A DNA stretch of 32,000 nt. It comes from Halomicronema hongdechloris C2206 (lineage in GTDB: Bacteria; Cyanobacteriota; Cyanobacteriia; Phormidesmidales; Phormidesmidaceae). Below are positions 10,460 to 30,781 of the stretch, piece after piece. The position numbers were made by a program, and so were the translations under genes. The notes beneath the pieces were generated by a model, which did no database searches, was not told the DNA's origin, and saw nothing but the letters and a program-made list of their open reading frames with translations. Location: positions 4,890,001 through 4,922,000 of the forward strand of contig NZ_CP021983.2 in assembly GCF_002075285.3 (NCBI RefSeq). Direction: 5' to 3'. Position 1 is the stretch's first letter. Every line of letters starts with the position of its first letter.

Positions 10460-10482
10460 CAAAAAAACAAGTCAGTTCTTTC

Positions 10483-12448: not shown

Positions 12449-12497
12449 GGGAATTGGGGAATGGGGAATGGGGAATGGGGAATGGGGAATGGGGTTA
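12448..12497. repeat. Tandem heptamer array (GGGGAAT), six full units plus one partial unit; STRR-like
   Basis: Read directly in the znuC-znuB spacer: GGGGAAT t GGGGAAT x5 GGGGTTA. Confidence 0.9.
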
Positions 12498-12519
12498 TTG
12501 ATTTTTATGGAGGGCGCGT

Positions 12520-13353: not shown

Positions 13354-13356
13354 ACC

Positions 13357-13648
13357 ATGCCCCAAATTCTTGATGCCCTGCCAACCCAACAGCCAAACAG
13401 AATCCTGTGCAGCTATCACAATCCGTCAGCTGACGTACAAATTGCTCAGATTTCCAACATTCCCCATTGGTATTTCGACCGCGTTATCTTTCCTGGCGAT
13501 TCGCTCCTCTTCGAGGCTGTTGCAGAGGCAACCCTGGAAATCTATAGCGGTGATTGGCATCACGACACGACTGGCCGATCATATTCCTTGCGATCGCTTG
13601 CAGATGGCAACACCGATTTCATCCACTGTTTTGAGGTCGATGAAATGA
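13357..13648 (+). pseudogene. DUF1830-family protein with a 1-nt frameshift near 13550
   Basis: Frame 1 gives ILCSYHNPSADVQIAQISNIPHWYFDRVIFPGDSLLFEA...LEIYSG. Frame 2 then gives IGITTRLADHIPCDRLQMATPISSTVLRSMK*, the expected DUF1830 C-terminus, which ends at 13648. Confidence 0.6.
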
Positions 13649-14655
13649 CTGCTTCATTATCAGAACTGATGCCCAAACGGGGAATGCCAGTGACCCTGAT
13701 TACCGGATTTTTGGGGAGCGGCAAGACCACGCTGCTGAACCACATTTTGACTAACCGCCAAGAGTTGAAGGTAGCGGTGCTGGTGAATGAATTTGGTGAC
13801 ATCAACATCGATAGCCAGCTGTTGGCGTCGGTGGAAGAAAACATGGTGGAGCTGAGCAACGGCTGCATCTGCTGCACGATTAACGACAGCCTGGTGGATG
13901 CGGTGTATGCCGTGCTGGAACGGGAAGAGCGGATGGACTATCTGGTGGTAGAAACCACGGGACTGGCCGACCCGCTACCCATCATGGTGACGTTTCTGAG
14001 TACGGAGCTGAAAGCCTTCACTCACCTGGATTCTGTCATTACTGTGGTAGATGCGGAAGCCTTTACAGAAGATCACTTCAGCAGTGATGCGGCACTCAGT
14101 CAGTTAATCTACGGCGACATTATCTTGCTGAACAAGGCCGATTTAGTACCAGAGTCTAAGCTAACCCAGTTAGAAGCCTACATTCACAGCATCAAAGAGC
14201 AGGCACGATTCCTGCGGTGTTCGCTGACGGCAGAAGCCGATGGGCTGCCCCTTTCTGCCTTGCTAGATGTGGGTTTGGCAGAGCCCCCGGTGTTGAGTCT
14301 GGACGTAGAGGAATGTCAGACATTCAACAGCACATCCCCCCACCTTACTCAGGATGGCTTTGTCTCGGTGCCGTTTAAGAGCGATCGCCCCTTCAACCTG
14401 ACTAGGTTCGAGCATTTCTTGATGGCCCAGATGCCCGTCGATGTGTTCCGGGCCAAAGGCATTCTCTGGTTCGAGGGCGAGGAAGAGCGTTTTATCTTTC
14501 AGCTCAGCGGCAAACGGTGCAGCATTACCCCCGAACCCTGGACCACCCCACCCCAAAATCAACTCGTGTTCATTGGTCGTCAGTTGAACCTCCTGCAACT
14601 GCACCAACACCTCACCAATTGTTTGGCCGGTAGTCGAGTCTCCCTACTGTCCTAG
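13645..14655 (+). CDS. COG0523 (CobW/ZigA/YeiR-like) metal-chaperone GTPase
   Basis: Motifs GFLGSGKTT, NGCICCT, ETTGLADP, NKAD and a CobW_C domain. The ATG at 13645 overlaps the DUF1830 stop (ATGA). Confidence 0.8.
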   Translation: MTASLSELMPKRGMPVTLITGFLGSGKTTLLNHILTNRQELKVAVLVNEFGDINIDSQLLASVEENMVELSNGCICCTINDSLVDAVYAVLEREERMDYLVVETTGLADPLPIMVTFLSTELKAFTHLDSVITVVDAEAFTEDHFSSDAALSQLIYGDIILLNKADLVPESKLTQLEAYIHSIKEQARFLRCSLTAEADGLPLSALLDVGLAEPPVLSLDVEECQTFNSTSPHLTQDGFVSVPFKSDRPFNLTRFEHFLMAQMPVDVFRAKGILWFEGEEERFIFQLSGKRCSITPEPWTTPPQNQLVFIGRQLNLLQLHQHLTNCLAGSRVSLLS

Positions 14656-15539: not shown

Positions 15540-16613
15540 ATGCTAAAAACCTCCGACACCCACGACACCCGCCTCCCCGTCACCATCATCACGGGCTTTC
15601 TCGGCAGTGGCAAAACTACGCTGCTGAATCACATCCTCCAAAACTTCGATGCCTTTCGCGTTGCGGTGCTAGTGAATGAATTTGGTGACATCAATATCGA
15701 CAGTCAGTTTCTGGTCACCGTGGAGCAGGACATGGTGGAGCTGACCAACGGCTGCATCTGCTGCACCATCAACGATGACCTGATGCAAGCGGTATATCGA
15801 GTGCTGGAGAAACGGGACAGAATTGACTACCTTGTAGTCGAAACCACTGGCGTTGCCGACCCCCTACCCATTACCCTCACCTTCCTCGGCACCGAGCTGC
15901 GGGACATGACTCGACTCGACTCCATCCTGACGGTAATTGACGCCGAAACCTTTGAACCCGACTTATTCAACAGCCAGGCGGCGATGAGTCAGGTGGCCTA
16001 TGGCGATATTCTGCTGCTGAATAAAACCGACTTGGTCTCACCAGATCGTCTTGAGGCGGTGGAATCAGGGATTCGCACCTTCCGAGAAGATGTCAAGATT
16101 CTCCACGCTCAGCATGGCCGGGTACCCCTGCCGCTGATCATCGATGTGAAGGTGGGCGATCGCGGTCTGTATCAAGCCGTGGCCCAAGCTGATGCCGAGA
16201 AAGCGGCCCATGATCATGACCATCACTCCGAACACGAGGCTCACGACCACGGGCATCACGGGCATCATCACGACCACGATCATCCCCACGAACATCATCA
16301 CCATCACTCCGACCACCTGGATAACGATGGCTTTGTCTCGATGGCGTTCCGCTCCGATCAGCCCTTTGCCCTCAAGAAGTTTCAGCAGTTCCTTGACTAT
16401 CACTTGCCACCAGAACTGTTCCGCATGAAGGGGATTCTCTGGTTCAAAGAAAGCCCTGCCCGTCACTTTTTCCAGCTCACGGGTAAGCGGTTTCAGCTTG
16501 AAGACTCGGAATGGCCAGGATCACCCGGCACTCAACTCGTCTGCATTGGCCGAAATTTGGATCTCAAGGTGATGGAAGAAAAGTTGATGAACTGTGTTGC
16601 AGATGAGGATTAG
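15540..16613 (+). CDS. COG0523 metal-chaperone GTPase with a His-rich insert
   Basis: Motifs GFLGSGKTT and NGCICCT. The insert HDHDHHSEHEAHDHGHHGHHHDHDHPHEHHHHHSDH lies between the G domain and CobW_C. Confidence 0.85.
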   Translation: MLKTSDTHDTRLPVTIITGFLGSGKTTLLNHILQNFDAFRVAVLVNEFGDINIDSQFLVTVEQDMVELTNGCICCTINDDLMQAVYRVLEKRDRIDYLVVETTGVADPLPITLTFLGTELRDMTRLDSILTVIDAETFEPDLFNSQAAMSQVAYGDILLLNKTDLVSPDRLEAVESGIRTFREDVKILHAQHGRVPLPLIIDVKVGDRGLYQAVAQADAEKAAHDHDHHSEHEAHDHGHHGHHHDHDHPHEHHHHHSDHLDNDGFVSMAFRSDQPFALKKFQQFLDYHLPPELFRMKGILWFKESPARHFFQLTGKRFQLEDSEWPGSPGTQLVCIGRNLDLKVMEEKLMNCVADED

Positions 16614-16730: not shown

Positions 16731-18200
16731 ATGTTCCTCACTTTCTACAACAGCCTCACCAAACGCAAACAACCCTTTACCCCCAGCCATCCAGGACGGG
16801 TAACTCTGTATTGCTGTGGGGTGACGGTTTATGACGATTGCCACCTGGGCCATGCCCGGTCATACCTGGGGTGGGATGTGCTGCGGCGATACCTGCGCTG
16901 GCGGGGGTACGTGGTTCATTACGTGCAAAACTTCACCGATATTGACGACAAAATCCTCAACCGGGCCAGAGCCGAGGGCACAACCATGGCGGCTATCTCA
17001 GAGCGCTACATCCAGCGCTACTTTGAAGACATGCACCGCCTGAATGTGATGGATGCCGATGAGTATCCCAGGGTGACGGAACATATTGAGGCGATTCATG
17101 AGTTGATTGGTCAGTTAGAGGCTAAGGGCTATGCCTACGCTGCCGGGGGCGATGTGTATTATCGGGTAGAGCAGTTTGCCGACTATGGCCAGCTTTCGGG
17201 GCGATCGCTGGCAACCCTGCAGGCGGGAGCGAGTGGTCGCGATCTGGCGGCTACCGCCAAGGCCAACCCAGCGGACTTTGCCCTCTGGAAGGGAGCCAAA
17301 CCCGACGAACCGGCGTGGGACTCTCCCTGGGGACCGGGCCGACCGGGCTGGCATATCGAATGTTCCGCGATGATTCGAGCCCGACTGGGGGCCACCATCG
17401 ATATCCACGGTGGTGGCGGCGACCTCGTGTTTCCCCACCACGAGAATGAAATCGCCCAATCCCAGGCCGCCAACGGCAAACCCCTGGCCAACTACTGGCT
17501 ACACAACGGCATGGTGACGGTGAAGGGCGAAAAGATGTCGAAATCCCTGGGCAACTTCACTACGATTCGCGATTTGCTAGAGGGTCGTTGGCCGGAGTAT
17601 CCGCAGCCGGTAGACCCGATGGTAGTGCGGCTGTTCGTGCTGCAGGGGCATTATCGGAAGCCACTGGATTTTACGAAAGATGCCATCGCAGCCGCGATCA
17701 ACAGTTGGCAAACCCTGAAAGCCGGACTCCTCTTTGGCGACCACCACGGAGCCGCGCTGGGATGGTCAGTCGCCCCCCTTCAATCTTCTCTTCAGGAACT
17801 CAGCCTAGACAACCCGTGGGTCGAAAGGTTCCAAACCGCCATGGATGATGACCTGAACACGCCGGGGGCTCTGGCAGTGCTGTTTGAGCTGGCCAAAGGG
17901 TTGCAGCGGGAGGGAAACCGTCTGGTTCACGAAGGGAAGCCCCAATCCAGACCTGATGTGCTCTTGCAGCAGTGGCAAACCCTGTTGCATCTATCCCAGG
18001 TTTTAGGATTTGAGGCTAAAGCAAACGGTACGGCGGGTGACTTGGATGAGGCTGCGATCGCTGATCTGATCCAGCAGCGTCAGGCGGCCCGGCAACAGCG
18101 CGACTTTGCTATGGCAGATGATATTCGCGATCGGCTTGCGGCGGGGGGGATTACGGTGGTTGACCAACCGGATGGCGAAGTCCGCTGGCATTGGCAGTGA
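16731..18200 (+). CDS. cysS: Cysteinyl-tRNA synthetase
   Basis: Class I signatures HLGH and KMSKS. The zinc-site residues are retained (YCCGVT, HIECSAM, HGGGGDLVFPHHENE). Confidence 0.9.
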   Translation: MFLTFYNSLTKRKQPFTPSHPGRVTLYCCGVTVYDDCHLGHARSYLGWDVLRRYLRWRGYVVHYVQNFTDIDDKILNRARAEGTTMAAISERYIQRYFEDMHRLNVMDADEYPRVTEHIEAIHELIGQLEAKGYAYAAGGDVYYRVEQFADYGQLSGRSLATLQAGASGRDLAATAKANPADFALWKGAKPDEPAWDSPWGPGRPGWHIECSAMIRARLGATIDIHGGGGDLVFPHHENEIAQSQAANGKPLANYWLHNGMVTVKGEKMSKSLGNFTTIRDLLEGRWPEYPQPVDPMVVRLFVLQGHYRKPLDFTKDAIAAAINSWQTLKAGLLFGDHHGAALGWSVAPLQSSLQELSLDNPWVERFQTAMDDDLNTPGALAVLFELAKGLQREGNRLVHEGKPQSRPDVLLQQWQTLLHLSQVLGFEAKANGTAGDLDEAAIADLIQQRQAARQQRDFAMADDIRDRLAAGGITVVDQPDGEVRWHWQ

Positions 18201-18417
18201 ATCAGCGCGGTCGGAGCAATGCTTTAAGCGAATCTAGTCTCTGACGTGGTCTGGTAGCTTTCGTGGTTGAATCCCTATAGGTGGTAGGCGCAGAATAAAT
18301 GTGTTTATCTTGACCTGCAACCAGAAAAACTTACTGAGAAAACTCGGCAGCTATACTGAAATTTTCAATATATTCATCCGATATGAGCGGACTATATGGA
18401 TAAATTGCAGCCTATCC

Positions 18418-18509
18418 ACCCAACTTGGTGAGATATACTGCGAATAATCAACATATCCACCCTGTTTCGGGCAGATAGACTGAAACTGTCGATCTAATAA
18501 GAGTTAGGC
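18418..18509 (+). mobile_element. Candidate attC site or array-proximal recombination site
   Basis: ACCCAAC (fits RYYYAAC) ... GTTAGGC (fits GTTRRRY, 18503-18509), 92 nt apart. It lies 37 nt upstream of the SDR start. Arm pairing is only moderate (AACT..T.AGAT). Confidence 0.4.
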
Positions 18510-18545
18510 AGAATTAAACTCAAGGAAAATGAGAAGTGTCAGACT

Positions 18546-19298
18546 GTGACTGAGAAGGGAAGCGAAAAGAGAGTTGCACTGGTGACGGGTTCGACATCAG
18601 GAATTGGGATGGCGATCGCAAAGCGGCTTGCTGAAGATGGGTTTACTGTTGTTTTTCATTCCAGGTCATCGGTGTCAGTTGGGCAGTCACTAGCGACAGC
18701 GTATCCTGGTGCATCTTATTTCCAAGCTGATTTGTCCGATCAAGGTCAGGCTCGTGATTTGATTGCTAGAGTCTTATCGCATCACAGGCGGATAGATGTG
18801 TTGGTCAATAATGCAGGGGTTAGTGCCACAATTCCACATACATCCCTTAAGGAAGCGACACCAGAGGTCTGGCGAGATCTGTATGAAGTCAACGTCATTG
18901 CACCTTGGACACTCATTGCAGAGGCTGAAAATGCGCTACGTCAGTCATCCAGCCCTGACTGTCCTAGTTGCATTCTCAATATTAGTTCTCATGCTGGGAT
19001 TCGCCCAAAAGGAGCCTCAATCCCATATTCTGCAAGTAAAGCTGCTCTAAACCACATGACGAAGCTGCTTGCATTGAGTCTTGCACCACAAATTCGTGTG
19101 AATGCGATCGCACCGGGTTTAGTTGAAACTCCAATGAGCAAAGATTGGACAGCAGCCCGAAAGTTGTGGGAAGAGCGATCGCCAATGGAGCGAGGAGCGC
19201 AGCCAGAAGAGATTGCACAGGTGGCTTCGATGCTGGTTACAAGCCATTATCTTACGGGTGAGATTATAATTTCAGACGGAGGATTGAACCTTACGTAG
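18546..19298 (+). CDS. Short-chain dehydrogenase/reductase (SDR) family oxidoreductase
   Basis: Motifs TGSTSGIG, NNAG and YSASKAA. It has a GTG start and lies in AT-richer sequence. Confidence 0.85.
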   Translation: MTEKGSEKRVALVTGSTSGIGMAIAKRLAEDGFTVVFHSRSSVSVGQSLATAYPGASYFQADLSDQGQARDLIARVLSHHRRIDVLVNNAGVSATIPHTSLKEATPEVWRDLYEVNVIAPWTLIAEAENALRQSSSPDCPSCILNISSHAGIRPKGASIPYSASKAALNHMTKLLALSLAPQIRVNAIAPGLVETPMSKDWTAARKLWEERSPMERGAQPEEIAQVASMLVTSHYLTGEIIISDGGLNLT

Positions 19299-19312
19299 TC
19301 TGTGAAAATCAT

Positions 19313-19401
19313 GCCTAACAATCCCGTTGCACACCGACCGAATCAAGTTGGTTGGTGAGTTCCGAGAGATGACTAGCGGCGGGTGAACGGGGTCGTTAGG
19401 C
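19313..19401 (+). mobile_element. Integron-type attC recombination site, 89 nt
   Basis: GCCTAACAATCCCGTTGCACACCGACCG ... GCGGCGGGTGAACGGGGTCGTTAGGC. The cores are exact RYYYAAC and GTTRRRY. The arms are imperfectly complementary, and the 5' arm closely resembles classical cassette attC sites (GCCTAACAAT.C.GTT.CA..CCGAC). Confidence 0.8.
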
Positions 19402-19599
19402 AGACTTCACCCTGGGCTGTACACTCTTTTTGACATAGCAATGGCGAGAAAAGTCTTGCAGCTAACGTGAATATGATTATCTGGAATTTTTATTGAAGCA
19501 CTTAATTTTGATTTTGCTGACTACTTCAGTGGGATAATCCCAAGCCTCCAAAATGAAGCAAAACTGGAGACTGTTTTTAAGTGTTTTATGATTTAAGGA

Positions 19600-22368
19600 A
19601 TGTACAGGCCAATTTTAACCAGCAAACTGTATATCCCTCCACCACGACCCAACGCTGTGGTGCGTCCACGCCTTATTGAACGACTGAATGCGGGGCTACA
19701 CTACAAGCTAACCCTCATTTCTGCTGCTGCTGGTTTTGGCAAAACAACTTTACTCAGCGAATGGATTGCCGTCTGTGAACAGCCGGTGGCATGGCTGTCA
19801 CTAGATGAGGAGCATAATGATCCAACTCGCTTTCTGATTTACGTTGTGTCTGCCTTGCAAACGCTCACCTTAAGCAAGGTTAAGGGGGAAACTCAACTCG
19901 GTGAGGGGGTTTTAAGAGCATTAAAATCACCCCAACCGCCCCCACTCAATTCGCTTCTAACGACGTTGATCAATGAAATTACGGCCGTTTCCGAAAACGT
20001 CATCCTCGTCCTTGATGACTACCACCGCATTGAATCCGAACCAGTGGATCAGGCAATGGAGTTTTGGGTCCAGCACCTGCCGCCATCTTGTATGCACCTT
20101 GTTATTGCCACCCGCGAAGACCCACCGCTGCCCCTAGCACGGCTGCGCGCGGGGGGTCAGTTGACCGAACTGCGTGCCCCCGATTTGCGCTTTACCCAAG
20201 TCGAAACGGCTGAATTTCTGAACCAGGTGATGGATCTCAATCTCTCGATAGAAGAGATTACCGCACTTGAAAATCGCACTGAAGGTTGGATTACCGGCCT
20301 GCAATTGGCAGCGATATCCTTACAAGGACGCCAAGACACAACCACCTTTATCAAATCTTTCTCCGGTAGTCATTATTTTGTGCTGGATTATCTAATTGAA
20401 GAAATTCTAGAACAACAGCCCGAAAGTATCCAGAACTTCCTATTATCCACATCTATTCTTGATCGCCTATGTGGCTCTCTTTGTGATGCTGTTCTGTCCC
20501 AAGCTTCTACCCCAGGCCAAGAAATCTTAGAGTATCTAGAACGCACAAATTTGCTGCTGGTTCCGCTAGATGACAAACGCGAGTGGTATCGCTACCATCA
20601 TCTTTTTACAGATGCTCTGCAAGTACGCTTAACTCAGGGGCACCCCGACCATGTAGCTGAGCTACATCTAAGAGCATGTGCATGGTACGAGCAGAATAAT
20701 TTGCGGCCTAATGCGATCCACCACGCCCTCGCTGCCCGACATTTCGAGCGCGCGGCGGATCTAATCGAACTGGAATGGTCAGCTAATAGTGGATCCTATT
20801 ATCAGAATGCAACCTGGACAGAATGGGTAAAGACACTGCCAAACGAGTTAGTCCGAACCCGGACTACGCTCAGTATTGGCCTTGCCTGGGAGTTGCTTTT
20901 CTCAGGTCAGTTGCAGGCTGCAGAGAACCGACTGAAGGACGCAGATCGTTTATTGGAACTGACAGTAAACACCCGTGATTCTCTGGAGACTTCGCCAAGC
21001 AGTCAGGATGAGAAAACATTCCGTTCGCAGCAAGGGTTATTAGGCGTTGCTTGGGCTTTTCATGCTCAGGCACTCAGCGATAATGCTGGCACTATCAAAC
21101 ATGCCCGGCAAACACTCAACCTCCTATCTGAGACGAACCATTATATCGCTGGCCTCGCAAGCTCTCTGCTAGGTCTGGCTTATTGGAGGGATGGGGATTT
21201 GGAGATGGCCGTTCAGTATATGTCCGATGCGATCGCACGCTTGCGGACGACAGGACATCTCCTTTTTGCAATCAGTGGAATCTATACATTGGCTGGTATT
21301 AAGATTGCCCAGGGGCGTCTTTTTGACGCAGTTAATCTCTATAAAGAGGCCTTACTCTTTGCAACAGCACAAGGCGAGCCAGTATTGCCGGGCACAACTG
21401 ACTTACATCTCGGGTTGAGCCAGCTTTATCATGAACAGGGCAACGAGGAAGCTGCTAAACAGCACCTGCAGAAATGCGAGACACTCGACAAACGAGCAGC
21501 ATTACCGGAATGGCCCTATGGCTTATATCTTTTTCAGGCTCAATTAAAGGTCGAGCAGGGAGAACTGGATGATGCCCTCAAGTTACTCGAAGAAGCGGGA
21601 CAACTCTACCGTAGAAGTCCTGTTCCCAATCTTTGCCCTGTAGCCGCCTTGAAAACGCGGGTATGGCTCCGACAAGGCAGGCTGGCAGAAGCTCTTAGTT
21701 GGGTGCGTGAGCAAGACCTGTCTATTGATGATAAGCTCAACTATTTGCAAGAATTCGAGTACATCACATTCGCTAGGGTACTCATTGTTCAGTATAGACG
21801 TGACCAAACAGACGAGACCTTTCAAAAAGCAATGAAACTTCTGACGCAACTATACTCAGCAGCAGAAGCAGGTGGCAGGTCAGGCAGCATGATTGAGATC
21901 CTCATCTTGCAAGCAATCATCAATGAAGCACAAGGCCATATCTCTTCCGCCCTCCAGTTTTTGGAACGCGCCCTCACACTAGCAGAAACTGAGGGTTACC
22001 TCCGTATCTTTGTAAATGAAGGCCAGCCCATGGCGCGTTTACTCTATGAGGCCCTTGCTCGCAAAATAACACCTAATTATGTACAGCGCGTGTTAACTGC
22101 GTTTCCTCTTAACGAGTTAGAACCCAAAAAATCGTTAAAAACGCAACCTCAAGCAGCCAGGTTGCTCGAACCATTGAGCAAGCGAGAAATCGAGGTGCTT
22201 CACCTGATAGCAGAGGGTCGAACCAATCAGGAAATTGCGACGATACTCTTTCTTTCGGTGAATACAGTGAAAGTGCATACTCGAAATATTTACGGCAAAC
22301 TCGATGCCCATCACCGGGCAGGCGCCGTTGCGAAGGCCCGTGCTTTGGGTGTTTTGTCCTCAACGTAG
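19600..22368 (+). CDS. MalT-like LuxR-family regulator (STAND ATPase, TPR-like repeats, C-terminal LuxR HTH)
   Basis: It has an N-terminal P-loop (AAAGFGKTT) and Walker B (VLDDYH), followed by a long helical repeat region. The C-terminal HTH is LSKREIEVLHLIAEGRTNQEIATILFLSVNTVKVHTRNIYGKL. Confidence 0.85.
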   Translation: MYRPILTSKLYIPPPRPNAVVRPRLIERLNAGLHYKLTLISAAAGFGKTTLLSEWIAVCEQPVAWLSLDEEHNDPTRFLIYVVSALQTLTLSKVKGETQLGEGVLRALKSPQPPPLNSLLTTLINEITAVSENVILVLDDYHRIESEPVDQAMEFWVQHLPPSCMHLVIATREDPPLPLARLRAGGQLTELRAPDLRFTQVETAEFLNQVMDLNLSIEEITALENRTEGWITGLQLAAISLQGRQDTTTFIKSFSGSHYFVLDYLIEEILEQQPESIQNFLLSTSILDRLCGSLCDAVLSQASTPGQEILEYLERTNLLLVPLDDKREWYRYHHLFTDALQVRLTQGHPDHVAELHLRACAWYEQNNLRPNAIHHALAARHFERAADLIELEWSANSGSYYQNATWTEWVKTLPNELVRTRTTLSIGLAWELLFSGQLQAAENRLKDADRLLELTVNTRDSLETSPSSQDEKTFRSQQGLLGVAWAFHAQALSDNAGTIKHARQTLNLLSETNHYIAGLASSLLGLAYWRDGDLEMAVQYMSDAIARLRTTGHLLFAISGIYTLAGIKIAQGRLFDAVNLYKEALLFATAQGEPVLPGTTDLHLGLSQLYHEQGNEEAAKQHLQKCETLDKRAALPEWPYGLYLFQAQLKVEQGELDDALKLLEEAGQLYRRSPVPNLCPVAALKTRVWLRQGRLAEALSWVREQDLSIDDKLNYLQEFEYITFARVLIVQYRRDQTDETFQKAMKLLTQLYSAAEAGGRSGSMIEILILQAIINEAQGHISSALQFLERALTLAETEGYLRIFVNEGQPMARLLYEALARKITPNYVQRVLTAFPLNELEPKKSLKTQPQAARLLEPLSKREIEVLHLIAEGRTNQEIATILFLSVNTVKVHTRNIYGKLDAHHRAGAVAKARALGVLSST

Positions 22369-22473
22369 TCATCAGGCTCCCCATCACCCAACTTCCCTTT
22401 ATTGATGGGTAATTACTCCTTGAATAATACTCCAGTGGTATGACCCTCATATCGTCTTGCCCATAAGCTTCTT

Positions 22474-23211
22474 GTGTCGGTGATAAATACTCACAACAGG
22501 AATGGAGTAATGAAAGAAATGATTGCAGAAGCTTCGTTGCCATTCAAAGCGAGAATGGGTGGCGTTTTATACTTAATCATTATCATTGGAGGACTCTTCG
22601 GTGCGGGCTATGTTCCTTCCACGATCGTCGTACATGGTGATGCAGCAGCTACGGTAAATAACATCCTGGCAAACGAATCGCTCTATAGATTCGGACTTAG
22701 CATTCACATCATCGTAGTTCTTTGTAATATCCCTCTAGCAGTCATCTTTTACGACCTATTCGAGCTTGCAAACAAAAGTCTCTCTCGACTAGTGATGCTT
22801 TTTATATTGGTAGCAGCGACTATTGAGGGTGTCAGCTTACTCAATCAATTTGTCCCTCTAATCCTTTTACAGAGTGCTGCCACAATAACCGCAGAACAGC
22901 TTCAGGCTACGACTTATATGCACTTCCTGCTACAAGTTATAGGGTTTAATCTCAGTCTTGCATTTTTTGGCTGCTTCTGTCTTCTGGCTGGTTATTTAAT
23001 TTTCAGATTAGGTGTCCTTCCTCGAATAATAGGTTTGCTTTTGGCGATAGGGGGAGCGTGTTACCTGATTAATAGTTTCGCCAACTTTCTAGTCCCTGAA
23101 TTCGCTGTTAGTTTGTCCCCTTATATCTTTATCCCATGTTTTTTGGGGGAGGCAACACTCTGTTTGTCGTTGTTGATTAAGGGTGTAAGTCTTGAACAGA
23201 AGGTCATCTAA
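22474..23211 (+). CDS. DUF4386-family membrane protein
   Basis: A polytopic protein whose sequence, YLIIIIGGLFGAGYVP...GDAAATVNNILANESLYRFG, is typical of DUF4386. The true start may be the ATG at 22510. Confidence 0.5.
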   Translation: MSVINTHNRNGVMKEMIAEASLPFKARMGGVLYLIIIIGGLFGAGYVPSTIVVHGDAAATVNNILANESLYRFGLSIHIIVVLCNIPLAVIFYDLFELANKSLSRLVMLFILVAATIEGVSLLNQFVPLILLQSAATITAEQLQATTYMHFLLQVIGFNLSLAFFGCFCLLAGYLIFRLGVLPRIIGLLLAIGGACYLINSFANFLVPEFAVSLSPYIFIPCFLGEATLCLSLLIKGVSLEQKVI

Positions 23212-24192
23212 ATGAAAAAGGTTGTATACACAAAGTATGGTTCCCCAGATGTCATTGAACTCATAGAGACCGAGAAACCGTTACCTAAGGATAATCAAGT
23301 TTTGCTAAAGGTTCATGCGGCATCTGTCAACATGTTGGATTGGTATCATCTAACAGGTCCTCCGGTGATCCGTTTAACAAACGGTACACTTTCCAAACCC
23401 AAAGAGACTTCACTTGGACTAGACGTGGCTGGTCAGGTTGAAGCTGTAGGCGATCGCGTAACCCAGTTGCAGCCAGGGGATGAAGTCTTTGGAATAGCCA
23501 AAGGTTCATTTGCAGACTATGCGTGCGCTGATGAACATGAGTTGGTACAGAAACCGGCCAACGTATCGTTTGAGGCTGCGGCTGCTACCCCTGTAGCAGC
23601 CTTGACAGCGCTACAAGGACTTCACAATAAAGGCCGAATCCAGCCAGGTCAAAAGGTTCTCATCAATGGAGCTTCTGGTGGCGTAGGGACGTTCGCTGTG
23701 CAGATAGCCAAATCCTTCGAGACCATCGTAACGGCTGTCTGTAGCACCCAAAACCTGGATATCGCTCGCTCAATGGGGGCAAACTACGCTATTGATTATA
23801 CGCGAGAAGATTTTACGACGAATGGACGGCAATTTGACTTGATCTTTGCTGTCAACGGCTACCACTCGATTTTTGATTATCGCAGGGCATTGAGTCCTAC
23901 GGGCATCTATGTCTCAGCTGGAGGGAAGCTGGCTCAAATTATTCAGGCAGCGCTTGTGGGACCCATACTATCGAAAGTTGGACGTCAGCAACTCTCATTT
24001 ATGGGGATAGCGCAAGTGAAGCAAAAGGACCTGTCTATTATTGGAGAGCTGCTTGAATCTGGCAAAATCATACCCGTAATTGATAGATGTTATCCGTTAA
24101 GAGCAACATCACATGCCCTTCAATATCTTGGGGCGGGGCATGCCAAAGGAAAAGTCATCATCACTATGAGACCTGATGATAACAGCTCGTAA
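23212..24192 (+). CDS. MDR-superfamily NAD(P)H quinone oxidoreductase / alcohol dehydrogenase-like protein
   Basis: It has a GroES-like N-domain and the Rossmann motif INGASGGVGTFAVQIAK. The C-terminus is GHAKGKVII. Confidence 0.8.
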   Translation: MKKVVYTKYGSPDVIELIETEKPLPKDNQVLLKVHAASVNMLDWYHLTGPPVIRLTNGTLSKPKETSLGLDVAGQVEAVGDRVTQLQPGDEVFGIAKGSFADYACADEHELVQKPANVSFEAAAATPVAALTALQGLHNKGRIQPGQKVLINGASGGVGTFAVQIAKSFETIVTAVCSTQNLDIARSMGANYAIDYTREDFTTNGRQFDLIFAVNGYHSIFDYRRALSPTGIYVSAGGKLAQIIQAALVGPILSKVGRQQLSFMGIAQVKQKDLSIIGELLESGKIIPVIDRCYPLRATSHALQYLGAGHAKGKVIITMRPDDNSS

Positions 24193-24212
24193 GGCGCGAA
24201 TTCTCTCTAGCT

Positions 24213-24298
24213 GCCTAACACTACGCCGGAGCGGACGGATGACAAAATCTGAGTATTGACACGAAAACATTGACCGCCGTTCAGCTTCACCGTTAGGC
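24213..24298 (+). mobile_element. Integron-type attC recombination site, 86 nt
   Basis: GCCTAACACTACGCCGGAGCGGACGG ... GACCGCCGTTCAGCTTCACCGTTAGGC. The core sites are exact, and the arms pair imperfectly with bulges. Confidence 0.7.
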
Positions 24299-24532
24299 GA
24301 TTCTATTCTGGAGATGAATGAAGCTATTTTTTGCCAAGTCCTTGACAAGTTTCTCTATTTAGGCTATCAAGCTTATTTCCTAAGCATCCAAAAGCCTTAG
24401 AGCACTTACATAATTGCTCTATCAATGACCCTGACGACCATTTGCGAGAATGGGCAAGAAGACAACTTTTATAATGAGAACAGGTGAATTGAGCTTCAGC
24501 TTACATCGGTAGATAAAGTAAGAAGAGGTTTT

Positions 24533-24787
24533 ATGAGTATCAGTCTAACCCCCGACCAGGAACGCTTCATCCAAACCAAGCTTCAAGCTGGCAAATATCG
24601 CTCTGCCGAAGAAGTCTTAGAAATCGCCCTGCGGTTACTGGATGAGTACGATCGCTCTGAAGCTGAATGGGTTGAAGAAGTTCGAGCCAAGATTGACGCG
24701 GCGATTGAAGCTTCTGAAAATACCGCCCCGATCGATGGTGAAACATTTGTTAACGGCATCCTGGAACGATTCCAGCAGGCAAAGTAA
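24533..24787 (+). CDS. ParD/RHH-type type II antitoxin
   Basis: MSISLTPDQERFIQTKLQAGKYRSAEEVLEIALRLL is the ParD-like antitoxin signature. A ParE-like ORF follows 2 nt later. Confidence 0.75.
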   Translation: MSISLTPDQERFIQTKLQAGKYRSAEEVLEIALRLLDEYDRSEAEWVEEVRAKIDAAIEASENTAPIDGETFVNGILERFQQAK

Positions 24788-24789
24788 CC

Positions 24790-24948
24790 ATGAGTCGCTA
24801 TGTCATCAACGTTCTTGCCAGTCAAGACCTGAATGAAATTGCTGACTATTTTGCTGGAAACAATATTGAAGCCGGGGAGCGGTTCTTTCAGGCATTTAAC
24901 CGTAAATGCCAGCAGCTTGTTGCCTTCCCCAATAGCGGCAAGAGCTAA
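24790..24948 (+). pseudogene. ParE/RelE-family toxin, 3'-truncated (52 codons)
   Basis: MSRYVINVLASQDLNEIADYFAGNNIEAGERFFQAFNRKCQQLVAFPNSGKS* stops right after the conserved FP..G motif, where roughly the C-terminal half of a ParE toxin should follow. Not in the ORF track because it is under 60 aa. Confidence 0.65.
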
Positions 24949-24991
24949 AAACTGCAAGCCACACACTGGTGCCAGATTTGATTTTTAAGGC

Positions 24992-25950
24992 TCACTCTGG
25001 CTTCTGAATCAGACTCTCCCATTGCCGCTGTTTCACTTTGGGGTCAATGCCCAGCAAACGCACATAGTCGCCGGGATGATCTGCCAAGAACTGCTCCACC
25101 TGGGTCAGCACCTGGGCCTCGTGGTTACTCGCAATGGTCGGGCCATTCTGCCAGGAACCTGCCTTAAATCGCCGGATATCGGCGAATTCCAGGCCAATGT
25201 GGTGCCCCTGACGGAGTTTTTGCCGGATTCGTCCACAATTTCTGCCCGCAAAGGGTGAGCTACCTGACCATTGTGATGCATAGACTGGAAGCCATTACTG
25301 GAGATAGGATTCTGCAAAGACCTGAGGCAGGCGATATCGTCAGCACAGCGATATCCGGCTCGCAGGGCCTGGTTGATTTCGACCACGTGATGAGAGAAGG
25401 TGCGATGGTCAAAGACCGGCCTCCGGCCATCGCTATCGTTAGCATCCGGTAACCGATCGGCAGCTTGCTGGGTCGTAATCACTGCTCCTGAGGGCACATA
25501 CTTACCGGGGGGAATCTCCACATCTTGAATCAGGGCATGCATCATCACAATGCACCCGTGACCCACCTGGGCATTAAACACCGTCGAGCGAAAGCCAATA
25601 AAACACTCATTCCCAACGTAAGCGGGGCCATGAATCAACGCCATGTGGGTAATGCAGGTGTCGTGGCCAATCCACACAGAGTAGGCTTGCTGATCATCCC
25701 CTAAGACTCGTCCCTGCTCTAACCCATGAATGACCACCCCATCCTGAATGTTGGTATTCACCCCGATATAAAAGGGAGTCCCTTCATCCGCTCGAATGGA
25801 GGTATTGGGGGCGATAATCACATTTTCGCCCAGCTGCACATCACCAATCAGACTGCACTGGGGATGAACATAGGCAGAAGCTGCAATTGTAGGCTGATCT
25901 AGGTCATGGTCCCAGGGAGTGGGTGGGGCGGGTTGACGACGGAGCGGCAT
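24992..25950 (-). pseudogene. Gamma-carbonic-anhydrase / CcmM-like protein with one RbcS-like (SSLD) module; 1-nt frameshift near 25227-25230
   Basis: ORF 25105-25950 holds a left-handed beta-helix gamma-CA domain with the His ligands retained ([13 protein letters not shown]). A second minus frame from about 25228 to 24992 gives [78 protein letters not shown]. That is a typical CcmM small-subunit-like domain. Confidence 0.75.
25406..25429 (+). repeat. HIP1-splitting mini-hairpin element, 24 nt, in frame
   Basis: GCGA | T GGTC AAA GACC GGCC TCC GGCC A | TCGC. It adds GRRPVFDH within ...LPDANDSD[..][18 protein letters not shown]. Confidence 0.8.
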
Positions 25951-25965: not shown

Positions 25966-26589
25966 TCAAAGTTGAGTGGGATTGGGAGCACCCCCGTAGA
26001 CGGTGGCGGGGTCAAAGGTCTTGGTCTTTTCCGTAAACGTGAGCGCAATGGGCCGATTAACCTCAACCCCCTCGTCGCCAGGGGAAATCTGGCGGTAAAA
26101 GCAAGAGCGATAGCCCACATGGCAACTGGCTCCTGACCCAAATACCTTGACCTTCATCAACAGGCAATCCTGGTCATCATCAATCAGCAATTGCTGCACG
26201 GTCTGCACCAGGCCGCTGGTCGCACCTTTATGCCAGAGCTGCTGACGGCTGCGACTGTAGTAGTGGGCTTCGCCCGTTTCGAGGGTTTTCAGCAATGCTA
26301 CTTCATTCATGTAGGCGTGCATCAGCACCTCGCCGGTTGCAGCATCCGTGGTGACGACGGGGATGAGCCCATGGGCGTCAAACTTAGGGGCCAGAAGCAT
26401 TCCTTCTTCGACAGCTTCAACCGAGGTACGGGCGGCAAAGGGTGATGACATAGGGCAGAGAGTAACAATGACAAGCGCTGGTCTAGGGCAAATAGGTGGC
26501 CTCAGCTGGGCCTGAGAGCGTCGACTGGTGGTTGATTCGGGAACTGCGGCAGCCTCTTTCTCGGTTTGCTCTAAATTTGCAGACATCAA
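25966..26589 (-). CDS. hisI: Monofunctional phosphoribosyl-AMP cyclohydrolase
   Basis: Motifs [52 protein letters not shown] and [10 protein letters not shown]. The N-terminal 46 aa may not be translated; an alternative ATG lies at 26451. Confidence 0.8.
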
Positions 26590-26635
26590 CTTTACCGAGA
26601 CTTTATATCTGTCTCAGTATATATCCCATAAGGTG

Positions 26636-26652
26636 AGAATGATAATCATTCT
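26636..26652. promoter_or_regulatory. Zur-type palindrome, perfect 8-1-8, in the hisI / PEP-CTERM divergent promoter
   Basis: AGAATGAT-A-ATCATTCT, read directly. Confidence 0.8.
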
Positions 26653-26673
26653 GGTCGAATTGAGGTTTTCTCT

Positions 26674-27474
26674 ATGCTCAGTTTTGGCAAGTCAATCATT
26701 GCGATCGCCCACAAAAAGGGGGGCGCGATGGTCCTCCGGACCGGCTCCGCCATCGCAGCCGGCACAACCCTGAGTCTACTTACCATTAATCCTGCCCAAG
26801 CAGCTACCTTTGAGATTTCATGGACGGGACAAATTCTGGGCTACAGTGCCGAGGGTCGTTTCAGCTACGACGACACCCAAACCTTTGAAGATGGAATTGT
26901 GCGAGGTGACGATTTAGACGCGTTTGACATTGCCTTCTTCGACCCGCAGGGCAATCTGATCCAAGAATTTGAGGATAACCACCTTACCTATCCAGAGTTC
27001 AACTTTAATTTCGACACCCAAACGGGTGAAATTCTGCAAGATGGCTTTTTCGATGAGCCGAATGGCATTAACGTTGGAGAATTTACGGTTCTGTTCGATG
27101 ACGCGGGGGACACTATTGGGGCAACGGGACTGAACTTCTGGTCGGCGGCTCCCGTTGAAGATGGAGAACCTGTCCCCCATGTTCACCTAACCGATTTTGG
27201 CAATAACTTTCCTGACCTGCCGATAGGCTTCGTCCCCCCCGAGTTTGTCGAGGAGTCCCCCAATTTGTCGGTACGCGTTCGTCCCCATCTCGATGTCGCT
27301 TTCTTTACCCGCACACAGGCACAGCTTTTGGATGATCCAGATGCAGGTGATCAGCTCGGCCAGAGGATGGTTGCAACCCCGGTACCTGAACCGGGTGCTT
27401 TAGTCGGACTGGGTGCGATCGCATTGCTAGCCGCTCGTTTGCGGAGAAAATCTGGTGCGATTGACTCGATATGA
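26674..27474 (+). CDS. PEP-CTERM-anchored secreted protein
   Basis: It has an N-terminal signal peptide. The C-terminus is VPEPGALVGLGAIALLAARLRRK, that is, a PEP motif, a TM helix and a basic tail. Confidence 0.8.
   Translation: MLSFGKSIIAIAHKKGGAMVLRTGSAIAAGTTLSLLTINPAQAATFEISWTGQILGYSAEGRFSYDDTQTFEDGIVRGDDLDAFDIAFFDPQGNLIQEFEDNHLTYPEFNFNFDTQTGEILQDGFFDEPNGINVGEFTVLFDDAGDTIGATGLNFWSAAPVEDGEPVPHVHLTDFGNNFPDLPIGFVPPEFVEESPNLSVRVRPHLDVAFFTRTQAQLLDDPDAGDQLGQRMVATPVPEPGALVGLGAIALLAARLRRKSGAIDSI
26729..26752 (-). repeat. HIP1-splitting mini-hairpin element, 24 nt, inverted orientation, in frame
   Basis: GCGA | T GGTCC TCC GGACC GGC TCC GCC A | TCGC. It adds MVLRTGSA inside the signal peptide (..HKKGGA[..]IAAGTTLSLL). 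Confidence 0.75.
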
Positions 27475-27526
27475 TTTGCTCGTCCCAGACACTGACCTAA
27501 AAATCTCACACACATCCTTTAAATCC

Positions 27527-28492
27527 ATGCTGACATTCCTACTTAAGCTCTCCGCCTGGAGCGTCGTTCCCCTGCTCGGTACGTTGCTGCTGCCTGCATC
27601 CGTCGAAGCAGCCCTCTTTTACGCTACAGGACAGCGTCTGACCCAAGCTGTTCCAGGCGTTCACGATGATATCCGTGAAAACTTTTTGTTTGCGGTGGAT
27701 TCAACAACAGGCATTGCCACCCCCGTTTCACCTGAGACCAGCGGATTACCGTCAGCCTTAGCGGGGACAGCGGAGCAGCGACTGTTGGGCTATCAATTTA
27801 GCGGCCAACTAGTGGAGATTGATCTAAACTCTGCCACCCAAACCCCCATCGGTGAACCCACCGACCTAGCTGCCACCAGTTTTGACGTCCTGGAGGATGG
27901 TAGAGGATTTATTGTGCCTTTTGATGAGAGTTTCAATACTCAACAACTCCATCAAATTGACGTAACCACAGGAGCAGCCATTCCTCTGGGCTCATCTCAG
28001 GCGGTTGGCGATGCGGTTGACAATGCCCGCAGTACTCAACTGGGCACAGCCAACCCTTTTGTAATTAGTCTGGGGTCGGTTGATAATAGCCTCTATGGCA
28101 TCGACCTCGATACTGAGTCCTTGATTCAGTTTGATCCAGAGACGGGAGACGCTGCTGTTGTCGGCGAGGTGGGCGCTGTAACCGCAGACGATCGCGCTGT
28201 ATTTAGCGGTTTTGCGGCGTTGACAGGGGTTGACACCGATACTGATGGCCAGTTTGATGCTCTCTTTGGCAATGTCAACTTTATCGATGATGACAACGAT
28301 CCGGCAACGCCGGTTCAGCGTCTGGGTGGGATTGCTCGCTACGACCTGAGCGATGGCTCTTGGGATCTAGTGGGGACTAACCCCGGCGTTATTTTCTTTG
28401 GATTTGGGGCCTCTCCTGCTGCTGTCCCTGAACCGGGTGTTCTACTGGGCCTTCTCAGTCTCGGATTCTTGGGCGGGTGGAAGAGGCGGTAA
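27527..28492 (+). CDS. PEP-CTERM-anchored secreted protein
   Basis: The signal peptide MLTFLLKLSAWSVVPLLGTLLLPASVEA starts at the ATG at 27527. The C-terminus is VPEPGVLLGLLSLGFLGGWKRR. Confidence 0.75.
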   Translation: MLTFLLKLSAWSVVPLLGTLLLPASVEAALFYATGQRLTQAVPGVHDDIRENFLFAVDSTTGIATPVSPETSGLPSALAGTAEQRLLGYQFSGQLVEIDLNSATQTPIGEPTDLAATSFDVLEDGRGFIVPFDESFNTQQLHQIDVTTGAAIPLGSSQAVGDAVDNARSTQLGTANPFVISLGSVDNSLYGIDLDTESLIQFDPETGDAAVVGEVGAVTADDRAVFSGFAALTGVDTDTDGQFDALFGNVNFIDDDNDPATPVQRLGGIARYDLSDGSWDLVGTNPGVIFFGFGASPAAVPEPGVLLGLLSLGFLGGWKRR

Positions 28493-28686
28493 CTCCCTGA
28501 ACTCAGCCACCTCGAAAGGATCATTGGCAGCGGTTCGGGCAGTACGTTGCTATGGGTTTCATGACTTGCCAATCGTCAAATACAGAATTCGACCCGAATT
28601 TTTGAAGAGGGGCAGGGAGCATCTCATTTTTGCGAGAACCCAGCATCTGTGCTGAGATGAAAGGGTAGTCTCTACCCCAAAAGCTC

Positions 28687-29755
28687 TTGTCCCCCGAAGA
28701 CCAAGCCGCCTTAGCCCAGCATAGCCGCGAGATTGCCAAGATTCTGCATCGCAATAGCCCTCCTGAAGCCGTTGACACACTTGAAGGCATTGAAACGACG
28801 GTGCGGCAGCAGATGCTGGAGCACGTCAGTCCCGAAGTGGGAATTTTTTTGTCGAAGCGTGCACCCAAACCCAACGGGGACGCCCCCGGCAGCTAAAAAG
28901 TGTTCTGGGGACCCTCCCGATTCGGGAACAGCAAGCCCAGCGGTTGGGCCTCGAACCCCACGGTTCGTCTCAGCCCGCTCTTTGAGAAATGTGCGTTGCG
29001 GGTTGCGGCCTGCCAAAGCTATGGGAAAAGGCGAAACCGACGTGTCCGTTTTAACGGGGATGTCGTTGAGTCATTCAACGCTGCAACGCCTCGTGCAACG
29101 CCAACGTGAGACCCCACCGGAGGCGAAGCAGACGGTCACCGAGATCAGTGTCGATGGCGGTAAAGTGCGCCTGCGGCATCCGGAAAAAGGCGAACCCAGT
29201 TACTGGAAAGAATACAAGAGTGCTCGGGTCGAGAATCTGTACTATGGGGCGGCGTTTCAGGCAAATGACTGGCTGCAAGACTGGCTAAATAGCCAACCGT
29301 TAGCGAACCCCATCATCTGCCTTGGCGATGGGCATCGGGGCGTCTGGGCGGTGTTTCGTCCCATCGCCACCGTGGAAACCCGTTTAGAAATTCTCGATTG
29401 GTACCACTTGGTCGAAAACCTCTATGGAGTTGGGGGCTCATTAAAACGGCTGAAACAAGCCAAAGCTCTGTTATGGGAAGGGCGGGTTGATGAAACCCAG
29501 GCGTTATTTACCGACTGCGCTCTGGAGCAAGCCCGGCGATTCTGTGATTACTTGGAGCGACATCGTCACCGAATTGTGAATTACGGCTATTTTCAAGCTG
29601 AACAAATCTGTTCGATTGGCTCAGGTGCAGTTGAGTCAGCCATCAAGCAGATTGACCATCGCATGAAACTCCCAGGCGCTCAATGGGTGCCCGACAATGT
29701 TCAGCAAGCCTTGCAGGTGCGATGTGCCTATCTGAATAGAGCCTACGATTGTTGA
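28687..29755 (+). pseudogene. ISKra4-like transposase, decayed by an in-frame TAA at 28894-28896 and a frameshift near 29025-29035
   Basis: Three ORF pieces (28687-28896, 28900-29109, 28733-29755) tile one protein: ...EDQAALAQHSREIAKIL...LSPLFEKCALRVAACQSYGK / GETDVSVLTGMSLSHSTLQRLV...ILDWYHLVENLY. The frame switch sits at an A run (GGGAAAAGG). My family assignment is from memory of ISKra4-type sequences. Confidence 0.6.
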
Positions 29756-30573
29756 TGTTTTTGCAACTTTGAGATGCTCCCGAGGGGCACCATGATAAAG
29801 GACAGCGTTCTCGCCCAAAGCGGCAGACGTTTGGGATAGTTGGCAAACTGAGCCAGGTAGTAAACTTCGTCTTTGAGGGTAATGCCATCCGCCCAGGTCT
29901 CTACTTCTCTGCCGCTGTCGATACCTGACTTGAATTCGGCGTCTGTTTTGGAAACAGTATCGTGGCGGGCGGTATGGTTTGCTGATTTGCGGTTCAGTAC
30001 ATCAAATACAAATTCTGCGGGAGCCAGGCGATCGCGGATTTGCAGGATCAGCGATCGATTTTCTGCCTCACTTAAATAAGGAGACACCCCTTCCATCAGG
30101 ATCAGCAGGGGCTGATCGACAGAGTGCTGGATCTGATCGATCCAGGAAAAATCGAGAATTGACGCTGGAATGAACCGATAGCGATCATTTTCTTGAAAAA
30201 ACCTCTGGCGAAACTCAATCACTTCAGGAAAGTCAACGTCATACCAACGCACGCCGCCGTTATCCAGGCGGGTAAAGCGAGTACACAATCCGCAGCCCAG
30301 GTTGACTACAACGGCATTGGGATGAGCCTTAAGGAATTGTTGGGTTATGTGATCGTATTCCTGCACTCGAACCACAACACCCAGTTGGGAAGCCCAGCCC
30401 TTGGCATATTTGTCAAAGTCATAATTCGTTCGCTCGACAATTTCAACTGCTTCAGGATCTTGAAAAAAGCTATCCGAGCGCTGGGTCTCAACGTAGCGAG
30501 CATACAGGGTAATCATTAGGGTTTCGGCTACCCCAGTTAATGGATCTGCGGATTCTTTCTGAGTGCTAGTCAT
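29743..30573 (-). CDS. Class I SAM-dependent methyltransferase (COG3315/TcmP-like O-methyltransferase family)
   Basis: VVNLGCGLCTRF (SAM motif I) and LLILMEGVSPYL match the Leu-carboxyl/polyketide O-methyltransferase family pattern. Confidence 0.7.
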   Translation of the reverse strand: MTSTQKESADPLTGVAETLMITLYARYVETQRSDSFFQDPEAVEIVERTNYDFDKYAKGWASQLGVVVRVQEYDHITQQFLKAHPNAVVVNLGCGLCTRFTRLDNGGVRWYDVDFPEVIEFRQRFFQENDRYRFIPASILDFSWIDQIQHSVDQPLLILMEGVSPYLSEAENRSLILQIRDRLAPAEFVFDVLNRKSANHTARHDTVSKTDAEFKSGIDSGREVETWADGITLKDEVYYLAQFANYPKRLPLWARTLSFIMVPLGSISKLQKHQQS

Positions 30574-30703
30574 GGGTATTCACCGTTGTTTAGGTAGTGC
30601 GATCGCAAGCCGACATGGGTCAAATCAGCCGTCTCAGGTCTGTATCATGCCCTTCTCTCAAGACCCGGTGCTTGGAAAAGCGCTGGATGGGCCTGATTAT
30701 TAA

Positions 30704-30718
30704 TGAGAATATCTCTCA
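30704..30718. promoter_or_regulatory. Weak Fur/Zur-like inverted repeat upstream of the methyltransferase gene
   Basis: TGAGA-ATATC-TCTCA shares the GAGAAT half-site with the Zur-type boxes but is otherwise divergent. Confidence 0.3.
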
Positions 30719-30781
30719 ATAGTTTAGGGATATTGTAACTTGACTAACGGTCAGTAGGGGCTCACAAACCATGACTCTGCT

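Follow-up and report, generated by a model that had tools for sequence, protein, structure and literature searches.

The 32,000-nt stretch of Halomicronema hongdechloris C2206 DNA analysed here (the window) very probably carries a decayed sedentary chromosomal integron. The element occupies positions 18201-24946 between cysS and a gamma-carbonic-anhydrase (gamma-CA)/CcmM-like gene, and it would have lost its working integrase and decayed in place. A preliminary description, made from the sequence alone, had proposed an integron-type cassette array without an integrase, inserted between these two genes. The array is borne out by matches to an attC covariance model, by the association of the same attC type with integrases matching NCBIfam TIGR02249, and by cassettes that recur in other genomes. 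The insertion is not, because the synteny of relatives and the intI stub and putative attI region at the left end point to an integron that is resident across the clade and decayed in situ. A decayed integron is a known kind of element, seldom described in cyanobacteria. The features of the locus are listed below, with cassette limits set by a crossover between G and TT.

16731-18200, + strand: cysS, the left backbone gene (Pfam tRNA-synt_1e, 429 bits)
18201-18278, - strand: delta-intI remnant, first 26 codons, start codon lost, one in-frame stop; abuts the cysS stop codon
18279-18503, + strand: putative attI region with 41-nt tandem repeats; crossover point between G18503 and the following TTAGGC
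18504-19395, + strand: cassette 1 (892 bp), a short-chain dehydrogenase/reductase (SDR) open reading frame (ORF) at 18546-19298 (Pfam adh_short_C2, 172 bits) and its attC
19313-19401, + strand: attC of cassette 1, R'' GCCTAAC, R' GTTAGGC; model R1 73.5 bits, E 2e-19
19396-24292, + strand: cassette 2 (4,897 bp), three genes and their attC
19600-22368, + strand: MalT/LuxR-type STAND regulator, 922 aa (Pfam)
about 22510-23211, + strand: DUF4386 membrane protein (Pfam)
23212-24192, + strand: zinc-type alcohol dehydrogenase/quinone reductase (Zn-ADH; Pfam)
24213-24298, + strand: attC of cassette 2, perfect R boxes; model R1 36.1 bits, E 2e-8
24293-24946, + strand: cassette 3, decayed, at the array end; parD and truncated parE, no attC
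24533-24787, + strand: parD antitoxin gene (Pfam ParD_antitoxin)
24790-24948, + strand: parE, truncated, 52 codons (Pfam ParE_toxin, profile positions 3-48 of 89)
24995-25950, - strand: gamma-CA/CcmM-like gene, the right backbone gene (Pfam Hexapep)

The block is AT-richer than its surroundings, as had been described, with a GC content of 0.469 compared with 0.562 in the left flank and 0.539 in the right flank. By the ORF list and a Pfam scan, the long ORFs of the block that match a Pfam family are all on the + strand, which also agrees with the preliminary description. Its right limit had been placed at 24991 and is moved here to 24946, since homology to relatives is back from 24947 in both the window and its closest relative, an uncultured cyanobacterium (locus L121).

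Two of the three attC sites proposed earlier are real, and two more are found in a second AT-rich block of the window. GTTAGGC occurs at 18503-18509, 19395-19401 and 24292-24298, and the complete pattern GCCTAAC-N(45-75)-GTTAGGC has two matches (19313-19401 and 24213-24298) against 0.01 expected by chance. Both matches have exactly the R-box ends that had been claimed for them, and both directly follow an ORF, the SDR gene ending at 19298 and the Zn-ADH gene at 24192. A covariance model (R1) built from 22 non-redundant attCs of other genomes and run on the window with filters off matches both of them on the + strand with the scores listed above, and its reverse-strand scores are far lower (24.3 bits for 19313-19401 and 11.9 bits for 24213-24298). 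None of this holds for the third proposed site, 18418-18509. Its ends are unpaired, no ORF precedes it, and R1 sees its terminal GTTAGGC alone (18492-18509, 7.4 bits, E 5.4), and it was rejected as an attC.

Folding of the bottom strands as single-stranded DNA gave a graded picture. For 19313-19401 the fold is a long hairpin with imperfect pairing (-17.6 kcal/mol, z -3.1), and three single-base bulges appear on the 3' arm both in this fold and in that of 5466-5555 (z -2.0), an attC of the second block. It is on that 3' arm of the bottom strand that the extrahelical bases of an attC are expected. The site at 24213-24298 pairs at its R boxes and through a CGG/CCG L-box-like stem, the L-box arms being of the complementary type (CGG-A-CGG / CCG-CCG); its fold as a whole is weak, as discussed below, and 18418-18509 is unpaired from end to end.

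The attCs belong to a widespread family. One genome per prokaryotic species was scanned with the 3' arm only (GCGGCGGGTGA-N7-CGTTAGGC), and at least 120 loci were found. Among the matches listed, the cyanobacterial hosts are Leptolyngbya, Nodosilinea, Nostoc, Calothrix, Microcystis, Spirulina and Acaryochloris, and the non-cyanobacterial hosts are Pyrinomonadaceae and other Acidobacteria, Abditibacteria/Armatimonadota and Chloroflexota. The 5' arms are conserved though they lay outside the search pattern (..YTAACAA..TGCAC(A)CCGACCG), and the seven free bases of the 3' arm covary with them (GGCAT/ATGCC, CCCGTT/AACGGG, CCGCCT/AGGCGG). On the alignment of the 22 sites, RNAalifold returned pairs with GC:10/CG:9 and CG:14/GC:3/AU:2. 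A structure drawn by us on the same alignment has 92.5% of its cells paired compared with 86.1% after shuffling (0/500), with a covariation score of 0.176 compared with 0.080 (0/500), and pairing falls to 31-51% when the partners are slid by 1-3 columns. Compensatory changes in the family, with both sides altered, number 26 cells compared with 12.3 in shuffles (0/500). A scan of the window with Rfam found no family at the gathering threshold.

The left end of the block retains what appear to be remains of the integron platform. The preliminary description had found neither intI nor attI; no intact intI and no other IntI-like sequence is present within the 32-kb window, but a 26-codon remnant of the gene and an attI region can be recognised there. 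On the - strand, 18201-18278 translates as IGIQPRKLPDHVRD, the in-frame stop and IRLKHCSDRAD, aligns with the N-terminus of IntI from Nodosilinea sp. E11 (locus L124), MESRPRKLLDQVRDAIRLKHYSYRTEQ, and runs in frame straight into the cysS stop codon. When that IntI was used as a tblastn query, this was the sole match in the window below E 0.1 (65% identity over 23 aa, E 0.001). The whole left end, 18201-18512, reaches a local DNA alignment score of 110 with the L124 segment that covers the intI 5' end and the sequence leading to the first cassette, compared with a mean of 37 and a maximum of 59 for shuffles, and the counterparts of that segment in a TARA ocean scaffold (L125) and a cyanobacterial metagenome-assembled genome (MAG; L046) align with it as well.

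We read 18279-18503 as a putative attI site. Its homologue in L124, L125 and L046 is the stretch that separates intI from the first cassette, and its sequence includes a pair of 41-nt tandem repeats (18408-18448 and 18449-18489; motif ..ATCCACCC..GGGCAGATAGACTGA..) whose motif and period match two repeats beside the intact intI of L124. Accessory direct repeats are known as a feature of attI sites. The last 40 nt ahead of the junction are similar to junction segments in relatives, with z of 13-16 for L121, 8 for L026, about 5 for L125 and about 4.6 for L046, and in L125 and L046 intI lies directly upstream of these segments. The rejected attC at 18418-18509 is therefore re-read as probable attI sequence, consisting of the two 41-nt repeats and the crossover point.

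The cassettes of the array appear to be mobile units. Each complete cassette opens with TTAGGC and closes with an attC, and the R'' box of that attC (GCCTAAC) is exactly complementary to the opening, as expected from IntI recombination between G and TT, and this is what a circularising unit would show. The cargo reported earlier (an SDR, a regulator, a membrane protein, an oxidoreductase and ParD/ParE) was recovered by Pfam, with the amendment that ParE is truncated and its cassette lacks an attC. Calothrix sp. CSU_2_0 has a cassette (L120 2158-3040) that shares 83% identity in DNA and 90.4% in protein with cassette 1 and is flanked by attCs at 1998-2085 and 2958-3047; Calothrix cysS proteins reach only about 64% identity to the cysS product of the window, and cassette 1 has therefore moved horizontally. 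For cassette 2, the match is to Oscillatoria sp. CS-180 (L132 4874-9762), at 92% DNA identity across 4,899 bp. The copy there follows immediately upon an attC (4813-4889), its array has at least four attCs, and the similarity runs to a point inside the terminal attC. Remnants of this three-gene unit are found in Leptolyngbya sp. PCC 7375, and the ADH alone forms a single attC-linked cassette in a Fraserbacteria MAG (61% protein identity). No internal attC was found in cassette 2 by R1 with filters off; we take it to be one large three-gene cassette, though an internal attC may have been lost. In cassette 3, ParD is 89% identical in protein to that of the last cassette of L121, which likewise abuts the gamma-CA gene and has suffered a separate, larger deletion within parDE.

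Comparison of the same site in relatives indicates that the interval downstream of cysS is a resident integron site, where intI has been lost to differing degrees. In four genomes (the window, L121, L124 and L125), cysS is directly followed by an integron or by what is left of one, with differing cassettes, and gamma-CA and hisI bound the far side in three of them (the window, L121 and L125). The window cysS is 90% identical to that of L121, 89% to that of L125 and 83% to that of L124, and in relatives cysS stands tail-to-tail with intI. In L124, cysS is followed by SelO, a second copy of the cysS 3' end, full-length intI on the - strand (TIGR02249 profile positions 1-314 of 315) and cassettes, with attCs on the + strand at 15709-15794, 16826-16912 and 18317-18404. 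L125 has cysS, a methyltransferase gene, an intI pseudogene (profile positions 41-277), two attCs (14244-14342 and 15906-15994), an M23 peptidase gene, gamma-CA and hisI. In L121 the order is cysS, a 46-nt attI stub, SelO/APH, an attC (12136-12223), ParD, gamma-CA and hisI; intI is wholly lost, the 46-nt stretch directly after the cysS stop corresponds to window 18461-18506, and the ParD gene is 88% identical in DNA to window 24531-24810. A further candidate relative, L041, had only fragments of the gamma-CA region beside unrelated genes and a single cassette elsewhere, and was not used. As a separate observation, SelO lies upstream of intI in L124, between cysS and the duplicated cysS 3' end (11610-13494), and in L121 SelO and APH (8891-12223) follow the attI stub and precede the attC, that is, they stand in cassette position, which suggests that SelO crossed the platform or that the locus was rearranged.

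The attC type of the window is associated with integron integrases. An IntI1 sequence was used only as a lead, and integrase-like genes were seen beside arrays in seven loci; the integron integrase calls themselves rest on TIGR02249 with its cutoff of 265 bits. Matches to this profile adjoin arrays of the window's attC type in L124 (466.5 bits), L046 (462 bits), L016 (392 bits) and L125 (319 bits), and L046 contains a complete integron whose intI is encoded on the - strand and whose five attCs lie on the + strand. Plasmid pB of Kovacikia minuta (L134, NZ_CP083584.1) carries an annotated integron integrase with co-oriented cassettes of the same attC type downstream, and it is a possible vehicle for cassette exchange. 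When 72,556 plasmids were searched by BLAST, this attC type was found on two cyanobacterial plasmids only (Kovacikia pB and Acaryochloris marina NC_009929.1), and no resistance plasmid matched the window attCs. The likeness to resistance-cassette attCs noted in the preliminary description is therefore one of architecture and not of specific homology.

Several points weigh against a decayed sedentary integron at 18201-24946. The intI remnant is short, its match resting on those 23 residues. The attC at 24213-24298 folds weakly as a single sequence (z -0.64), and its perfect R boxes supply part of its model score. A scan of the block for promoter and terminator consensus sequences gave nothing above shuffles; the scan is uninformative, and no Pc promoter is claimed, although TTGACA-17-TATCAA can be seen by eye upstream of parD, at about 24344-24372. 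Finally, arrays in the clade are short, with 2-5 attCs per locus, unlike the large arrays of classical sedentary integrons.

The following course of events would account for the locus. In the clade, the platform would sit tail-to-tail with cysS and upstream of the CcmM-like gamma-CA gene and hisI. A deletion would have taken intI except for its first 26 codons and left attI, which would be followed by three cassettes in canonical orientation: the SDR cassette, the 4.9-kb three-gene unit, and a parDE cassette that has lost half of parE and its attC. Each cassette would have entered as a circle whose folded bottom-strand attC was joined by IntI to attI between G and TT, a mode of capture that we infer from what is established about integrons. 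Lacking IntI in cis, the array would be frozen and would change only through an integrase from elsewhere in the genome or from a plasmid. Cassette expression would then depend on promoters in the attI region or within the cassettes, or on read-through from cysS. Such read-through is possible because the array has followed cysS on the same strand since the deletion of intI, and if it occurs, the first cassettes directly downstream of cysS could be co-transcribed with the zinc cluster.

A second cassette block, 12 kb away, has a simpler content.

3934-6317: second block, GC 0.424, between a cation-efflux gene and an ArsR-family gene (ArsR/SmtB regulator)
4328-5161: GUN4-like ORF (Pfam GUN4), followed by attC 5466-5555
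5466-5555, + strand: attC; model R1 62.4 bits, E 3.8e-16; R'' degenerate (CGCTAAC)
5685-6243: DUF4160/DUF2442 gene pair, followed by attC 6213-6301
6213-6301, + strand: degenerate terminal attC; model R1 19.7 bits, E 1.3e-3; R boxes degenerate

Homologues of 6213-6301 are attCs inside the arrays of L017 and L104 and in the complete integron of L046. In the TARA relative, a different 2.5-kb insert with a co-oriented attC (25.5 bits, E 2e-5) occupies exactly the same backbone boundaries, and in Leptolyngbya sp. PCC 7375 the backbone efflux gene, of the cation diffusion facilitator (CDF) type, and the ArsR gene are adjacent. The insertion point could not be placed by means of PCC 7375, the CDF-ArsR intergenic region being too divergent. 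No intI remnant and no significant attI homology was found at the second block, local alignments staying within the shuffle range; a 40-nt resemblance to one attI only (z 4.6) to the left of it is treated as unproven. The different attC inserts in two genomes, together with the adjacent genes in PCC 7375, suggest cassette traffic at a site that has no integrase, and the origin of the second site may lie in an integrase acting in trans or in some ancient rearrangement. That one integrase trafficked cassettes between the cysS-linked platform and this second docking site is a doubtful proposition. If true, the second site would be a natural, repeatedly used secondary attachment site, either an attG hot spot or a cryptic second attI.

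These findings bear on three other explanations of the cassette blocks. Ready-made attC clusters without an integron integrase (CALINs) or single cassettes might have been placed at a secondary genomic site, attG (5'-GWT-3'), by a trans-acting integrase. Experiments have shown that cassettes can insert at genomic sites other than att sites (bioRxiv 10.1101/2022.09.11.507474), the cysS/gamma-CA block is compositionally distinct, and the second block bears attCs without recognisable intI or significant attI homology. Against this, the array between cysS and the gamma-CA gene begins exactly at a 5' stub of intI and a putative attI region with the 41-nt repeats of the clade, three relatives have an integron or its remains at the same site, one of them with an intact intI, and the right junction and the ParD cassette are found in the closest relative as well. 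For the cysS/gamma-CA block, insertion is therefore largely refuted, and we consider it very unlikely as an explanation. A different possibility is that the array is still active, its cassettes being cut out and rearranged by an intact IntI whose gene lies at another place in the genome or on a plasmid. The second site speaks for it, with different attC inserts here and in the TARA relative within identical boundaries and with its backbone genes adjacent in PCC 7375; in addition, an integron integrase encoded at another locus may excise the cassettes of a CALIN (Cury et al. 2016, PMC4889954), and plasmid-borne cyanobacterial integrons with the window's attC type exist. However, only a 26-codon integrase stub is present in the window, the terminal cassette shows decay in its truncated parE and missing attC, and the locus of the closest relative is further decayed. 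Continued activity is thus conceivable but not what we would expect.

That the GCCTAAC...GTTAGGC elements are palindromes of the repetitive extragenic palindrome (REP) or miniature inverted-repeat transposable element (MITE) kind, unrelated to integrons, is extremely unlikely. They are indeed imperfect palindromes in intergenic DNA, at least four in 32 kb, and an unrelated family of 34-nt palindromic repeats does exist in the window. However, the elements are strand-specific and co-oriented with the ORFs, with + strand scores far above those of the - strand, and there is one element per ORF unit. They adjoin TIGR02249 integrases in several genomes and an integron integrase on a plasmid, they are common to Cyanobacteria, Acidobacteria, Armatimonadota and Chloroflexota, and they travel with their ORFs between genomes. 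The preliminary description had itself named a generic REP family as the outcome that would speak against an integron; the elements were found instead beside integron integrases and bounding recurring cassette ORFs. Separately, a REP-like palindrome, GCGATGGCCGAAGGCCGGTCCTTTGGACCATCGC, occurs at 6795-6830 and 7818-7853 and on the - strand at 25411-25433 and 26725-26745; all copies are intergenic and unrelated to the attCs, and the same repeat is seen beside the 3' end of intI in Nodosilinea sp. E11 (L124 13318-13357).

Most of what is known about integrons comes from Proteobacteria and from the field of antibiotic resistance. The literature searched names Cyanobacteria only when listing phyla that carry integrons, and no paper in it links integrons with Halomicronema hongdechloris. 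Cyanobacteria are among the integron-encoding phyla in the survey made with IntegronFinder, in which a CALIN is defined by at least two attCs clustered within 4 kb with no integron integrase nearby, loss of intI is among the proposed origins of CALINs, and no intI pseudogene can be recognised near 95% of CALINs (Cury et al. 2016, PMC4889954). The array between cysS and the gamma-CA gene resembles a CALIN in its R''/R' boxes, bulged hairpins, co-oriented cassettes, lack of a functional intI and a cargo largely unrelated to resistance. Unlike in most CALINs, an intI stub and an attI appear to remain, so that an origin by loss of intI would be directly readable. In addition, its two good attCs are 4.8 kb apart (19401 to 24213), beyond the 4-kb threshold, and default clustering by IntegronFinder may split the array into two single sites or discard them; arrays with attC spacing above 4 kb may be under-counted for this reason. 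The attCs of the second block (5555 to 6213) lie within the threshold, if the weak site at 6213-6301 is accepted.

The locus also resembles the sedentary chromosomal integrons of Vibrio (superintegrons) and Xanthomonas in its fixed, conserved position, strain-variable cassettes, related attCs and toxin-antitoxin cassette, and in the decay of the integrase in some lineages. It differs from them in the number of attCs, with 2 here and 1-3 in the loci of relatives compared with tens to hundreds, a large array being one of more than 10-19 attCs, in its filamentous cyanobacterial host, in the position of the platform inside a zinc-homeostasis cluster (znuABC, COG0523, folE), and in one unusually large cassette of 4.9 kb, whose three genes include a regulator. 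Models of attCs typed by taxon, Cyanobacteria and Acidobacteria among them, have been reported, with attCs clustering by environment and not by host phylogeny (Ghaly et al. 2021, PMC8352920). The attCs described here are similar in that their sequence and structure can be modelled and in that the same arm type is present in Cyanobacteria, Pyrinomonadaceae, Abditibacteria and Chloroflexota, a distribution over several phyla that is consistent with clustering by environment. The second block and the Fraserbacteria ADH cassette, which lie outside a platform, are reminiscent of insertion at attG and of single attC sites lacking integron integrases (SALINs; Loot et al., bioRxiv 10.1101/2022.09.11.507474). 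By comparison, the cysS/gamma-CA array begins at the putative attI beside the intI stub, and the second block is unlike a clean insertion of a single cassette between G and WT, having about 200 nt extra before its first cassette boundary. The understanding of how integrons work is unchanged by this locus, which is a well-resolved cyanobacterial example. One small clade appears to show the life cycle of a cyanobacterial integron, with intI intact, pseudogenised, reduced to a stub or gone, and cassette exchange between distant cyanobacteria is documented by the SDR cassette (90% identity to Calothrix).

Several further features of the window were noted around the cassette sites. The gamma-CA gene is frameshifted near 25204-25264, where tblastn with the 311-aa homologue of L121 splits into frames -3/-2; this is either a true frameshift (a pseudogene) or a sequencing error, and it puts the C-terminal part, which is similar to the small subunit of RuBisCO, out of frame. 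To the right of this gene, a stretch of about 4.35 kb (26452-30805) is missing from L121 and partly present in Leptolyngbya sp. PCC 7375, with homology through 28511. No attC was detected in it, and it holds the ORFs 26674-27474 and 27455-28492, both with hydrophobic, basic C-terminal tails. Around both cassette sites lies a gene cluster of the zinc-limitation type, with znuABC-like, COG0523, folE and hisI genes. Two paralogous COG0523/CobW GTPase genes are recognised in it (13687-13919 compared with 15576-15808), one of which has a long His-rich stretch of HxH repeats (16190-16330). At the edge of the cluster, two overlapping ORFs of an IS66-family transposase (324-1858; DUF6444 and zf-IS66, DDE_Tnp_IS66) make up a copy of an insertion sequence that is possibly frameshifted.

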